Positions 5,762 to 12,824 of a stretch of DNA of 64,000 nt are shown piece after piece. The translations under genes and the position numbers were made by a program. The notes below the pieces were generated by a model. That model saw only the letters and a list, made by a program, of their open reading frames with translations. It searched no databases and had not been told where the DNA came from. The first letter of the stretch is position 1. The number at the start of each line of letters is the position of its first letter. The stretch is from Escherichia coli (GTDB taxonomy: Bacteria > Pseudomonadota > Gammaproteobacteria > Enterobacterales > Enterobacteriaceae), in assembly GCF_001677475.2 (NCBI RefSeq), contig NZ_CP015229.1; one strand, 5' to 3'.

Positions 5762-7018
5762 ATGCTCCATCCGCGAGCCAGAACCATGTTGTTATTATCG
5801 CTCCCCGCCGTGGCAATTGGGATTGCGTCCAGTCTTATTCTGATTGTGGTGATGAAAATCGCCTCGGTATTACAGAATTTGCTCTGGCAACGACTGCCGG
5901 GAACTCTGGGGATAGCCCAGGATTCACCTTTCTGGATCATCGCCATATTAACGCTAACAGGTATTGCGGTGGGGTTGGTTATCCGTTTCAGCCAGGGGCA
6001 TGCTGGACCAGACCCCGCCTGTGAACCGCTGATCGGCGCACCGGTTCCGCCCTCTGCGCTACCAGGACTTATCGTAGCATTAATTCTCGGTCTTGCTGGC
6101 GGCGTCAGCCTGGGGCCGGAACATCCGATCATGACCGTCAATATCGCCCTTGCCGTCGCCATTGGCGCTCGTCTGTTACCGCGCGTCAACCGAATGGAGT
6201 GGACTATTTTAGCCTCTGCCGGAACCATCGGCGCGCTGTTTGGCACACCTGTTGCGGCGGCGTTGATATTTTCGCAAACCTTAAATGGCAGTAATGAAGT
6301 GCCGCTATGGGATCGACTCTTTGCGCCGTTAATGGCAGCGGCGGCTGGTGCGCTGACGACAAGTCTATTTTTCCACCCCCATTTTTCGCTGCCCATTGCG
6401 CATTACGGACAGATGCAGATGGCAGACATTATCAGCGGTGCGATTGTAGCGGCGATTGCCATCGCTGCGGGGATGGTCGCCGTATGGTGTCTGCCACGGT
6501 TGCACGCAATGATGCATCAGATTAAAAACCCTGTGCTTATGCTCGGGGTTGGCGGGTTTATTCTCGGTATTTTGGGGGTTATTGGTGGGCCGGTTTCACT
6601 GTTTAAAGGGCTGGATGAGATGCAGCAAATGGTGATGAATCAGGCTTTCAGCACCAGTGATTACTTTTTACTGGCGGTGATTAAGCTCGCCGCTCTGGTC
6701 ATTGCCGCCGCCAGCGGGTTTCGTGGCGGGCGAATCTTCCCGGCAGTGTTTGTTGGCGTGGCGTTAGGTTTGATGCTACATGAACACGTTCCCGCAGTCC
6801 CGGCGGCAATTACTGTCTCCTGCGCTATTCTCGGTATGGTACTGGTGGTAACGCGCGATGGCTGGTTAAGCCTGTTTATGGCGGCAGTCGTTGTACCTGA
6901 TACCAATCTGCTACCGCTACTTTGTATCGTTATGCTTCCGGCATGGCTATTGCTGGCTGGCAAACCGATGATGATTGTGAATCGCCCGAAGCAGCAACCA
7001 CCCCACGATAATCTTTAG
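5762..7018 (+). CDS. yfeO: ClC-family putative ion channel YfeO
   Basis: 418 aa polytopic membrane ORF; N-terminus [20 protein letters not shown]; AAGGA RBS. Confidence 0.9.
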
Positions 7019-7132: not shown

Positions 7133-7459
7133 ATGTTCAGGTCACTGTTTCTGGCGGCCGCCCTGATGGCTTTTACCCCGCTTGCGGCAAACGCAGGTGA
7201 AATTACCCTACTGCCATCAATCAAATTACAAATTGGCGATCGCGATCATTACGGTAATTACTGGGACGGTGGTCATTGGCGCGACCGTGATTACTGGCAT
7301 CGTAATTACGAATGGCGTAAAAACCGCTGGTGGCGTCACGATAATGGCTACCACCGTGGCTGGGATAAGCGTAAAGCGTATGAGCGTGGCTATCGTGAAG
7401 GCTGGCGCGACCGTGATGATCATCGAGGGAAAGGCCGTGGACACGGACATCGTCATTAA
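7133..7459 (+). CDS. ypeC: Small secreted protein YpeC (DUF2502), W/R/H/D-rich
   Basis: 108 aa; signal peptide [21 protein letters not shown] followed by low-complexity [18 protein letters not shown]...GHGHRH; GGAG RBS. Confidence 0.85.
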
Positions 7460-7600: not shown

Positions 7601-8848
<1,248 letters not shown>

Positions 8849-8851
8849 CTA

Positions 8852-8873
8852 AAACATAGCCTTTGCTATGTTT
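8852..8873. promoter_or_regulatory. MntR operator (palindrome) in the mntH leader
   Basis: AAACATAGC-CTTT-GCTATGTTT perfect inverted repeat immediately upstream of the mntH RBS; matches the MntR box as I recall it. Confidence 0.75.
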
Positions 8874-8890
8874 CATGCTATGCCAAACGA

Positions 8891-8910
8891 GAATGATTAT
8901 CAAATTCATT
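8891..8910. promoter_or_regulatory. Fur box candidate upstream of mntH
   Basis: GAATGATTATCAAATTCATT resembles the GATAATGATAATCATTATC Fur consensus; mntH is known to be Fur/MntR co-regulated. Confidence 0.5.
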
Positions 8911-9174
8911 TGAATGGATTGTGGTGATTTCTCTGATAGACCAGGATTATGACTACGAAAAGATTGATGACTTGAATGTTATGGTTATGTTTAATGTTAG
9001 CACATTTACATAACTTTCAGCTTCCATACACAACATAGCAGAAATGTATGACAGCTCACTATTTTTGAAGCTTGTCACAGGACGTCATTATAGTGTGTGT
9101 CAGATCTCGTTTTCCTTAACCATGTTACATAGAATGTGCACGGAAATTTAACCTGCCTCATATTTGGAGCAAAT

Positions 9175-10377
9175 ATGGACCGCGTCCTTCATTTTGTACT
9201 GGCACTTGCCGTTGTTGCGATTCTCGCACTGCTGGTAAGCAGCGACCGCAAAAAAATTCGTATCCGTTATGTTATTCAACTGCTTGTTATCGAAGTGTTA
9301 CTGGCGTGGTTCTTCCTGAACTCCGACGTTGGTTTGGGCTTCGTGAAAGGCTTCTCCGAAATGTTCGAAAAACTGCTCGGATTTGCCAACGAAGGGACTA
9401 ACTTCGTCTTTGGTAGCATGAATGATCAAGGCCTGGCATTCTTCTTCCTGAAAGTGCTGTGCCCAATCGTCTTTATCTCTGCACTGATCGGTATTCTCCA
9501 GCACATTCGCGTGTTGCCGGTGATTATCCGCGCAATTGGTTTCCTGCTCTCCAAAGTCAACGGTATGGGCAAACTGGAATCCTTTAACGCCGTCAGCTCC
9601 CTGATTCTGGGTCAGTCTGAAAACTTTATTGCCTATAAAGATATCCTTGGCAAAATCTCCCGTAACCGTATGTACACCATGGCAGCAACGGCGATGTCCA
9701 CCGTTTCTATGTCCATCGTTGGTGCATACATGACCATGCTGGAGCCGAAATATGTCGTTGCAGCGCTGGTACTGAATATGTTCAGCACATTTATCGTGCT
9801 GTCGCTGATCAACCCGTACCGTGTTGATGCCAGTGAAGAAAACATTCAGATGTCCAACCTGCACGAAGGTCAGAGCTTCTTCGAAATGCTGGGTGAATAC
9901 ATTCTGGCAGGTTTCAAAGTTGCCATTATCGTTGCCGCAATGCTGATCGGCTTTATCGCCCTGATCGCGGCGCTGAACGCACTGTTTGCCACCGTGACTG
10001 GCTGGTTTGGCTACAGCATCTCCTTCCAGGGCATCCTGGGCTACATCTTCTATCCGATTGCATGGGTGATGGGTGTTCCGTCCAGCGAAGCACTGCAGGT
10101 GGGCAGTATCATGGCGACCAAACTGGTTTCCAACGAGTTCGTTGCGATGATGGATCTGCAGAAAATTGCTTCCACGCTCTCTCCGCGTGCTGAAGGCATC
10201 ATCTCTGTGTTCCTGGTTTCCTTCGCTAACTTCTCTTCAATCGGGATTATCGCAGGTGCAGTTAAAGGCCTGAATGAAGAGCAAGGTAACGTGGTTTCTC
10301 GCTTCGGTCTGAAGCTGGTTTACGGCTCTACCCTGGTGAGTGTGCTGTCTGCGTCAATCGCAGCACTGGTGCTGTAA
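9175..10377 (+). CDS. nupC: Nucleoside:H+ symporter NupC
   Basis: ORF track starts at 9136; chosen start is the ATG giving [20 protein letters not shown] (400 aa), CNT-family transporter. Confidence 0.95.
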
Positions 10378-10388
10378 GCACCATACAT

Positions 10389-10420
10389 AAAAAAGCCGGG
10401 GATAATTCCCCGGCTTTTTT
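10389..10420. terminator. Bidirectional intrinsic terminator between nupC and pdeA
   Basis: AAAAAGCCGGGGATAATTCCCCGGCTTTTTT: GC-rich hairpin flanked by A-run and T-run. Confidence 0.8.
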
Positions 10421-10427
10421 ACGCCTG

Positions 10428-12617
10428 TTAATCAGCTAATGGCTGCGGGCGACCAATCAGATACCCTTGCAGATATTGCACCCCGAGCTTATGCAATAGC
10501 GCCTGTTGCTGTTGCGTCTCGACAAACTCCGCGACCACACTCAATGACTTCGCTTTCGCCAGATCGGTAATTGATCTCACAATCATCGCATCCAGCGTGT
10601 TCGTGACAATATCTTTCACAAAGACGCCATCAATTTTGATGATATCAGCCTGCAAACGCTTTAACCGTTCGTAGTTGGCATATCCGGTGCCAAAGTCATC
10701 AATCGCAATCCGGAAACCAAACTTATGCAGCTGCTCGATGTTGTACATGCTGCTTTCTGCGTTAGAAAACGCCTGCTCCTCGGTGATCTCAAGAATGACC
10801 GCCTGCGGGGAGATGTGATAACGCTTAAACAGACGAATAATCCGCCCGGCAATATTCTTTTGCAGCAGCGTGAGCGGCATTAAATTGACTGAAAAGCGCG
10901 GTCCTTTTTTGTCGCAAGGGTGTGTTGCCAGCCACTTCAACAAGGATTCCAGCACTTGCAAATCAAAACGCGCGCTAAGGTTAAACTGAGCAATAAGGGG
11001 CAGAAACTTATCCGGGGTCATAATGCCGCCGTCATACTTCAGTCGCGCGAGGATCTCATCATAACCTTCACCCTCTTTGTTGCGAATTGGCTGGGCGTAG
11101 AGCAGCAAATCACCCTGATCTAACGCCGTGCGAATGGTATTCAGCAATAGCACCTGTTTAGTGGTCTGCCCGGAAACCATCTCCTCTCTGCTATCCAGCG
11201 CCAGCACATGATGATGTGCACAGGATTGCTCCGCCAGCCAGCTTAACTGCCCCAACAAGGGTTGCAGGGTTTCCTGATTTCCATCAAAACGCCCCCAGGC
11301 AGCACCATAGCCCATATCCAGCCCGGTATTGTTCCAGTGAATTTGCCGACTATTCAGGATGTTAACCATATGCTGGAGTCGTCCTTCCGTTTCCGGTCCG
11401 CTCAGCACTAACAGCAGTTCACTACCCGGCAATTGATACAACTTTTCGTTTTCCTGCATCAACGGCAGCAGCGTACGGTAAATTGAGCGGATACAGTGAA
11501 CGCGCATCATTAACCCGTAATGACGACTCATAAACTCAAGATTATCAATGCGCAGGCAGCAAAAACTCTTGCCCGCCTCTTGCTCCGGCGCTTGTTCTAA
11601 CGCACGAAAGTTGGGTAGGAGCGTTAACGGATCGGTCAGCGCCTGCAAATGCCAGCGGCGATTAAGCCATTCACTGCGATGATAAATGCGCACCATATAG
11701 AGCAGGCAAACGCTAAAGGAAATCAGCACCGCAAGAATAAATGCCAGCGAATATTCGGTTTCCACCCCTTGCAAAAAGTTCTGGTTGTAATTCAGCAGGC
11801 AAAGCGTTGAAACAGCCCAGGTGAGATTTAAAAACGGATAGCGAAGCTTACCGACCCCGAGGGTAAAGATGATGAAGAAAACGGGTACCAGGTAACCGGC
11901 AATAAAGTCGTTTTCATAAGGTGTGCACAACAGAAGTAGCAGCACGCTTAACGCTGCCAGCCAGCTTAAGGTAAATGCGCGTTTCTCTTTGCCCAACGAC
12001 GGAGCGATATCCCTGCGCCACAATATCTGCGCAAAGTGGGGACTTACAATCATGCGAGTGAGATAGTAGAAAAGCATGTTGTAAATCAGCACAGCGGTGA
12101 AAAGGCTTAGCAAATCAACGACCGTGAAAATGGCATCCGCATCGCCGAAAAAGGTGGATATCTTTAGCGGGAAATCAAAGAAGCTCCCCACAAGATACAT
12201 GCTGCATTTGATGCCGATCGGCGTCACCAAACCAAGCCAGAACAGACGTTGCCAGACATATCGGCTGGTCAATCCATAACGCCAACGCGTCCCCAGCTGC
12301 CAGCGTAATATTGCGCAGGCACACAACACGACAAACGTCTGGCTGCCGAGCATGACCGCAGTCTGTAAAAAAGAGAGATGAAAGTTCCACAGATTGGTGC
12401 AAAACATCCCGCATAAAACGGGAACGACACCGCGCCAGCCAAAGATAAACAAGATTGATAGCATTACGCACAGTGGCATCCACGCCAGAAAGATATAACT
12501 GGAATGGATAATGGCAAGTGGCGAAATAAAACGGGATAGCTGAATAAGTACCACGGTGAGCGTAAACGCTAGTGTGAATATCTTGATATTTTTTATCAGG
12601 TTATGCTCCACAAACAT
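10428..12617 (-). CDS. pdeA: c-di-GMP phosphodiesterase PdeA (YfeA), MASE1-GGDEF-EAL
   Basis: ORF track 749 aa; start chosen at internal Met (MFVEHNLIKNIK) giving 729 aa; N-terminal polytopic domain, C-terminal EAL motifs (EITE...DDFGTGY). Confidence 0.85.
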   Translation of the reverse strand: MFVEHNLIKNIKIFTLAFTLTVVLIQLSRFISPLAIIHSSYIFLAWMPLCVMLSILFIFGWRGVVPVLCGMFCTNLWNFHLSFLQTAVMLGSQTFVVLCACAILRWQLGTRWRYGLTSRYVWQRLFWLGLVTPIGIKCSMYLVGSFFDFPLKISTFFGDADAIFTVVDLLSLFTAVLIYNMLFYYLTRMIVSPHFAQILWRRDIAPSLGKEKRAFTLSWLAALSVLLLLLCTPYENDFIAGYLVPVFFIIFTLGVGKLRYPFLNLTWAVSTLCLLNYNQNFLQGVETEYSLAFILAVLISFSVCLLYMVRIYHRSEWLNRRWHLQALTDPLTLLPNFRALEQAPEQEAGKSFCCLRIDNLEFMSRHYGLMMRVHCIRSIYRTLLPLMQENEKLYQLPGSELLLVLSGPETEGRLQHMVNILNSRQIHWNNTGLDMGYGAAWGRFDGNQETLQPLLGQLSWLAEQSCAHHHVLALDSREEMVSGQTTKQVLLLNTIRTALDQGDLLLYAQPIRNKEGEGYDEILARLKYDGGIMTPDKFLPLIAQFNLSARFDLQVLESLLKWLATHPCDKKGPRFSVNLMPLTLLQKNIAGRIIRLFKRYHISPQAVILEITEEQAFSNAESSMYNIEQLHKFGFRIAIDDFGTGYANYERLKRLQADIIKIDGVFVKDIVTNTLDAMIVRSITDLAKAKSLSVVAEFVETQQQQALLHKLGVQYLQGYLIGRPQPLAD

Positions 12618-12824
12618 GAGTACACTACTCTCACTGATCGGGGTTTTCAGGCACACAAATAATAAGTTTATTCGCATCGCGAAGCAAACAGGGGCCAGCC
12701 TGTTGCCTATTTTTCATCCAATGATGCTTTCACCAGGCGGCGCTAACCCGGACGTAGACTGTATTACAAAAGCGGCAAAAAGCAGAGACAAAAAACCCCC
12801 GCTTTGCAGCGAGGGTTGGAAATT

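Follow-up and report, generated by a model that had tools for sequence, protein, structure and literature searches.

What does the short segment at 8852-8910, between the divergent genes mntH and nupC, do? It may hold operators for MntR and Fur, it may owe its sequence to a small coding frame or to an RNA structure, or its resemblance to operators may be accidental. The window, namely the whole 64,000-nucleotide stretch of Escherichia coli DNA that was analyzed, has the gene order yfeO-ypeC-mntH-nupC-pdeA around this segment. The regulated gene is mntH (7601-8839, minus strand), which encodes a 412-residue NRAMP Mn2+/H+ importer; the assignment is based on the ORF list, the RefSeq annotation of matching E. 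coli loci, and the NCBIfam model NF001923 (MntH), which the product matches at 621.5 bits against a cut-off of 430. The ORF list also gives yfeO (5762-7018) and ypeC (7133-7459), both on the plus strand, nupC (9175-10377, plus strand, identified as NupC), and the GGDEF/EAL gene pdeA (10428-12677, minus strand). The mntH-nupC intergenic stretch of 461 bp is present at 95% identity or higher in 5,424 of the 5,426 complete E. coli genomes.

Two features on the nupC side of the locus should be mentioned separately. Imperfect inverted repeats occur twice on the nupC side of the intergenic region (8973-8990/9002-9019 and 9019-9030/9045-9056), together with a promoter-like site on the plus strand, TTGAAG-18-TATAGT (9065-9094); this stretch (8973-9094) presumably contains the promoter and regulator sites of nupC. 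Beyond nupC, the gene is directly adjacent to pdeA in the window (10378-10427), where K-12 has IS186 (insL3); the window thus does not derive from K-12.

On the mntH strand, the region upstream of the gene reads ...TTGATAATCATTCTCGTTTGGCATAGCATG-AAACATAGCAAAGGCTATGTTT-T-AGAGG-CACAAG-ATG. The Shine-Dalgarno sequence AGAGG (8846-8850, minus strand), read directly from the letters, is followed by 6 nt (CACAAG) and the ATG codon (8839-8837), and its GAGG is kept in the 35-species alignment described below. An inverted-repeat search located the arms AAACATAGC (8852-8860) and GCTATGTTT (8865-8873), which are 100% complementary and are separated by a 4-nt spacer, forming the perfect 9-4-9 palindrome AAACATAGC-AAAG-GCTATGTTT at 8852-8873. 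The palindrome is unique in the 64-kb window at up to three mismatches, where shuffled sequences give an expectation of 0.02, and 12 nt separate it from the ATG codon of mntH.

Related sites are found at the other manganese genes of K-12. The region upstream of mntP carries two palindrome-like sites at three mismatches (0.01 expected), and rybA/mntS carries one at four mismatches, straddling the 5' end of rybA. The core ATAGC-N4-GCTAT is common to the mntH site, both mntP sites, and the mntS/rybA site. We made an MntR matrix from the three K-12 sites mntS, mntP-1, and mntP-2, leaving the mntH site out. With this matrix the mntH palindrome scores 28.4 bits, within the range of the training sites themselves (26.7-30.5 bits), while the runner-up in the window scores 15.2 bits and the simulated maximum is 17.2 bits, though the matrix is not wholly independent because its training sites were located by their similarity to the mntH palindrome. 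Judged by its symmetry, its matrix score, and its identity to K-12, 8852-8873 has the features of an enterobacterial MntR (DtxR-family) operator, and we regard it as the predicted MntR site. Mn2+-dependent control by MntR is established for the identical K-12 sequence (PMC8632737, PMC8264917, PMC4207228).

For Fur, a symmetrised 19-bp matrix was made from 15 other K-12 Fur sites, with mntH left out. The site centres were taken from Chen et al. 2007 (PMC2189734) and converted to current K-12 numbering via start-codon distances; the 15 training 19-mers aligned as aaTGATAATnATTATCAtt and needed no adjustment. The matrix scores 21.5 bits at 8886-8904 (centre 8895) and 16.7 bits at 8892-8910 (centre 8901), compared with 20.9-30.2 bits for the training sites. 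These are the two best sites of the window, the third best scoring 13.2 bits, and 21.5 bits was reached in none of 100 simulated 64-kb sequences. The 7-1-7 motif TGATAATnATTATCA also matches at 8888-8902 with two mismatches, one of two matches of this quality in the window (0.17 expected). The two overlapping 19-bp sites lie 6 bp apart and cover 25 bp in all, so that 8886-8910 shows both the score and the 6-bp-overlap architecture of a probable Fur box. The published information-theory scan, which used a 10-bit cut-off, gave the K-12 mntH Fur cluster as two sites over 25 bp with 19.9 bits, at -56 from the mntH ATG codon, which corresponds to position 8895 of the window (PMC2189734). Our scan thus reproduces the published K-12 position. 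The classical Fur consensus GATAATGATAATCATTATC matches at 15 of 19 positions (8889-8907), but an unrelated stretch at 24501-24519 matches equally well, and the consensus count was therefore dropped as a test.

A strong Fur site is also observed upstream of K-12 mntP (L004), at about 2389, 60-120 nt downstream of the two MntR sites (2266-2327). It scores 25.3 bits in our matrix and 22.8 bits in the scan of Chen et al. 2007 (PMC2189734). The exporter gene, too, thus has adjacent MntR and Fur sites.

The first-pass annotation had proposed a perfect MntR palindrome immediately upstream of the mntH ribosome-binding site and a Fur-like box about 20 bp further upstream, to be checked by scanning with MntR and Fur matrices. 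Both sites clearly pass these scans, with the scores given above. The palindrome ends 1 nt before the Shine-Dalgarno sequence, as described. The Fur-like box is real and well above chance, but its spacing differs from the one given: 12 bp lie between the end of the palindrome (8873) and the start of the first Fur 19-mer (8886), and the centres of the two operators are about 32 bp apart. The interval 8852-8910 exactly brackets the palindrome and the Fur cluster, and, as a correction of detail, the sense strand of mntH is the minus strand.

The positions of the two operators relative to the promoter should be noted. A consensus scan found one sigma-70-like promoter on the mntH strand, consisting of a predicted -35 hexamer TTGATA (8898-8903) and a predicted -10 hexamer TAGCAT (8875-8880) with a 17-nt spacer. 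The -35 hexamer is embedded in the Fur sites and is invariant in 35 of 35 species; the T, A, and final T of the -10 hexamer are likewise invariant in these species. From the predicted hexamers, transcription of mntH would start at about 8869-8867. With a start at this position, the palindrome, which begins 2 nt after the -10 hexamer, would span roughly -5 to +18. The Fur sites overlap the predicted, conserved -35 hexamer and the spacer, the start itself being deduced from the hexamers. The description of both operators as lying on the mntH leader is therefore loose, with Fur over -35 and the spacer and MntR over roughly -5 to +18 according to the predicted hexamers. On the basis of this start, the two sites appear to be operators that occlude the promoter and not elements of a long leader.

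This geometry suggests how the two repressors may act. Fe2+-Fur bound at 8886-8910 would lie over the -35 hexamer and the greater part of the spacer, shutting out RNA polymerase. Mn2+-MntR, a dimer of the DtxR family, bound at 8852-8873 would block open-complex formation or promoter escape. Either repressor would be enough alone, the two acting independently, and the MntH importer would be made only when iron and manganese are both scarce. Oxidised OxyR, bound just upstream at about 8914-8950, may activate the promoter under H2O2 stress. We consider that the segment is almost certainly the core promoter/operator region of mntH, at which Fe-Fur and Mn-MntR each repress by occlusion and OxyR activates. 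In this account the sites, their statistics, position, and conservation, and the identity to K-12 come from the present analysis and the regulation comes from the literature, whereas we infer the start and the occlusion geometry.

The regulation itself has been described in detail. E. coli mntH is repressed by Fe-Fur and Mn-MntR and activated by OxyR (Patzer & Hantke 2001, Kehres 2000/2002, as cited in PMC8632737, PMC8264917), and repression by Fur and that by MntR are independent of each other (PMC8632737, PMC8264917). A review assigns the promoter a site of its own for each of MntR, Fur, and OxyR (PMC8632737), and the regulation of mntH is recorded in the RegulonDB curation (PMC4207228). The core Fur regulon worked out for nine E. 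coli strains from ChIP-exo and expression data includes mntH (PMC10164565), and loss of Fur derepresses a mntH-lacZ fusion (PMC4676285). The Salmonella mntH and sitABCD genes are each under the control of the two repressors (PMC8970401).

The activator site is less sharply defined than the two operators. An OxyR-like sequence, ATAAtcctggtCTATcagagaaATCAccacaatCCAT, lies at 8914-8950 on the minus strand and agrees with the tetrad pattern at 12 of 16 positions, a pattern that is not distinctive, since the window contains three such sites at up to four mismatches. Its blocks AT (8950-49), CTAT (8939-36), AATCA (8929-25), and A..C (8919, 8917) are conserved at 0.91-1.00 in the 35 species and recur at intervals of about 10 bp, while the bases between them vary. 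The promoter has a separate OxyR site according to the literature (PMC8632737), and 8914-8950, which the first-pass annotation had not named, is its putative position.

The distribution of the palindrome was examined in 100,044 species, each represented by one genome; the exact pattern AAACATAGC-N4-GCTATGTTT occurs at 87 loci. In 34 of them an mntH orthologue, divergent from nupC, begins 11-14 nt downstream of the palindrome, in genera including Escherichia, Citrobacter, Salmonella, Kluyvera, Pseudocitrobacter, and Intestinirhabdus. Four further loci, from Enterobacter, Cedecea, E. coli, and Dryocola (L019 6408-6429, L021 6441-6462, L024 1347-1368, and L041 566-587), precede a gene for a SitA-like cluster A-I Mn/Fe ABC substrate-binding protein, and each has a Fur-like AATGATAAT box beside the palindrome. 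By their sequence, these appear to represent the same two-repressor arrangement at a second enterobacterial Mn importer. A second element of the ATAGC..GCTAT type is also present in tandem at each of the four, being ATAGCAATTGCTATA in three.

The remaining loci, about 49 of the 87, are in unrelated taxa with no Mn-related neighbour, as judged from an inspected sample, and were set aside as chance occurrences or unrelated repeats. The 22-bp pattern occurs on six contigs of the metagenome bin Bacterium P11BWT0bin.6 (L051-L056) and on three contigs of a Saprospiraceae bin (L008-L010). The multiple copies in these two bins suggest an unrelated dispersed repeat.

The 34 mntH loci were aligned with the window to give a 35-species set, in which identities were measured to the window. 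The set was selected by the exact palindrome, and conservation of the 18 bases specified in it accordingly carries no information; the evidence comes only from the N4 spacer and the flanking elements. The spacer AAAG, which is unconstrained by the search pattern, has a mean identity of 1.00, and the full 22-mer including AAAG thus precedes mntH in the genomes of 34 other enterobacterial species as well. The mean identity is 0.93 in the Fur 19-mer at 8889-8907, with 11 invariant columns, and 0.90 in the -10 hexamer, where TAnnnT is invariant. It falls to 0.52 in the 8-bp gap (8881-8888) that separates the -10 hexamer from the Fur core and to 0.39 upstream of 8950.

A similar distribution is seen within E. 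coli. The exact 70-bp haplotype of the window is common to about 1,115 E. coli genomes. In four sampled haplotypes, with 1-8 differences in the 70-bp query, the changes are in the 8-bp spacer, beside the -10 hexamer, or upstream of the Fur cluster, and no difference was found in the palindrome or the Fur core of these four. The stretch 8881-8888 is thus a polymorphic hotspot both within E. coli and between genera, while the operators flanking it are invariant.

The alternative that deserves the most attention is that the sequence is conserved by constraint on a protein, not by operator function. The small ORF ypeD (b4819; 8820-8909, minus strand, 29 codons) is annotated in RefSeq over exactly these bases, spanning the Fur/-35 region, the -10 hexamer, and the MntR palindrome and overlapping mntH by 20 nt. 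It was found by ribosome profiling and is among the ORFs detected by western blot, and homologues of YpeD have been claimed in Salmonella and Citrobacter koseri (bioRxiv 10.1101/2021.07.02.450978). The behaviour of the frame among relatives, however, does not resemble that of a coding gene. Only 17 of the 35 species, about half, keep it at or near full length (24-29 codons), and two of these are without the ATG codon. In the other 18, which include three Escherichia lineages, it is cut to 8-11 codons, again with two lacking ATG. The ATG codon is consequently replaced in four of the 35 species, and the frame is truncated or start-less in 20. Within E. coli, codons 8-9 are ATT-TAA in at least 850 and GTT-TGA in at least 289 of the 5,426 complete genomes, so that a stop at codon 9 is found in at least 1,139 of them (at least 21%), with both operators intact.

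The pattern of conservation in the peptide also argues against coding constraint. MNLIIIL, one conserved block of YpeD, falls on the Fur core, and KHSKGYV, the other, falls on the MntR palindrome; the stretch between them varies. Within the Fur cluster, conservation at the first, second, and third codon positions is 0.84, 0.92, and 0.90, i.e., third positions are not relaxed. Neither an ORF kept across relatives nor coding-type substitutions, as expected of a maintained coding gene, were thus found in the 35 species and the 5,426 E. coli genomes. The residues that are conserved in YpeD thus correspond to operator bases, and the frame is often broken. Its apparent conservation is most simply explained as a side effect of the Fur, -10, and MntR elements in the DNA, and we consider protein-coding constraint a very unlikely source of the conserved sequence. 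This is a caution for YpeD, whose reported conservation is explained by the operators that its frame crosses.

The expression of ypeD still bears on the simple promoter model. Its ATG codon (8907-8909) is inside the Fur cluster, has no obvious Shine-Dalgarno sequence, and at 8909 lies about 40 nt upstream of the start deduced for mntH, which counts against that model. Ribosome-profiling support for a frame that begins so far upstream means that there must be one or more further transcripts, for which the simple model does not account. A consensus scan of 8910-9180 found no second promoter-like site on the mntH strand. It is conceivable, though we would give it a low chance, that ypeD serves as a regulatory upstream ORF on a longer transcript starting upstream of the Fur-controlled promoter, and that its translation through the palindrome and the mntH ribosome-binding site tunes the translation of mntH in strains where the frame is intact. 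If so, a textbook promoter would gain a layer of post-transcriptional control.

The palindrome could alternatively act as an RNA hairpin in the 5' untranslated region of mntH, as an attenuator, a terminator, or an element of translation or stability. A transcript containing the whole palindrome can indeed form an 11-bp stem just before the Shine-Dalgarno sequence (90-nt fold, z = -2.2). However, with the start placed inside the palindrome, only its promoter-distal two-thirds would be transcribed. A stem of only 5 bp is then allowed, and the leader folds no better than shuffled sequences (z = +0.23). No U-tract or terminator-like site is present, and a search of both strands of 8600-9400 for Rfam families, including the yybP-ykoY manganese riboswitch, gave no match with E <= 1. 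The related motif of mntP is upstream of the promoter and that of rybA/mntS straddles the RNA 5' end, positions that exclude a role in the RNA, and the unpaired loop AAAG is invariant too, which would be expected for DNA recognition but not for a hairpin. The RNA-hairpin reading, for which the odds now appear extremely poor, was rejected for the lack of a terminator and of an Rfam match and for the weak leader fold.

Chance resemblance of one or both matches in an AT-rich intergenic region, to which the equalled classical Fur consensus and the indistinct OxyR pattern might point, is hardly credible and effectively refuted for the MntR and Fur sites by the palindrome and Fur statistics given above, by matrices that exclude mntH and yet return both sites as the top hits of the window, and by conservation of both sites, but not of their flanks, across genera; judged from sequence, it would apply only to the exact placement of OxyR.

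We thus return to the dual operator at the mntH core promoter. The system is already known; what has been obtained here is the correct reading of a textbook promoter, and it is nothing new. Nothing is added to the biology of manganese and iron homeostasis. The value of the result is that of a positive control, as which, rather than as a novelty, the sites had been recorded: they were correctly read from the raw sequence, so that reading regulatory sites in this way works in this window. Small matrices derived from a handful of K-12 sites recover the mntH operators as the top hits in 64 kb.

The closest known system is the mntH promoter of K-12 MG1655. The region 8800-8911, which takes in everything between the mntH start and the far end of the Fur cluster, matches it at every base, and the proposal of dual repression by Mn and Fe is thereby supported, repression by Fur and MntR being established for K-12. 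Dual Fe2+-Fur and Mn2+-MntR repression of the K-12 promoter, with OxyR activation, is reported to have been described by Patzer and Hantke in 2001, Kehres et al. in 2000, and Anjem et al. in 2009. The order yfeO-ypeC-mntH-nupC is the same, and the Fur cluster is likewise at -56 from the ATG codon. The two sequences differ at 8912 (C in the window, T in K-12), a position immediately beyond the Fur cluster and 3 nt upstream of the ypeD ATG codon, and at two more bases in the nupC-proximal part of the intergenic region; the window also lacks IS186 between nupC and pdeA. No functional effect of these differences is expected.

The mntH promoter of Salmonella enterica (L043, L079), reportedly the subject of Kehres et al. 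2002, has the same 22-bp palindrome, the same TTGATAATCATT Fur/-35 core, the same TAGCAT -10 hexamer, and the same CTATCA..AATCA upstream blocks, and the spacing of all elements is equal. The two promoters have diverged in their spacers and upstream of 8950. The Fur half-site also differs, being ATTATC in Salmonella, which is nearer the consensus, and ATTCTC in the window.

The K-12 mntS (rybA) and mntP sites, which Waters et al. are said to have described in 2011, share the ATAGC-N4-GCTAT core and the 22-bp length with the mntH site. They differ from it in being imperfect palindromes, 3-4 mismatches from the mntH sequence, and the mntP sites are far upstream and mediate activation, in contrast to the repression at mntH.

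The sitABCD promoter of Salmonella, Shigella, and pathogenic E. coli is also reported, by Ikeda et al. in 2005, to be co-repressed by MntR and Fur. The promoters of this type found in our scan carry, as at mntH, the exact AAACATAGC-N4-GCTATGTTT pattern beside a Fur-like box. They differ from the mntH promoter in the N4 spacer, in the Fur-like box, which abuts the palindrome directly or sits on its other side, in the tandem second ATAGC-like palindrome, and in the downstream gene.
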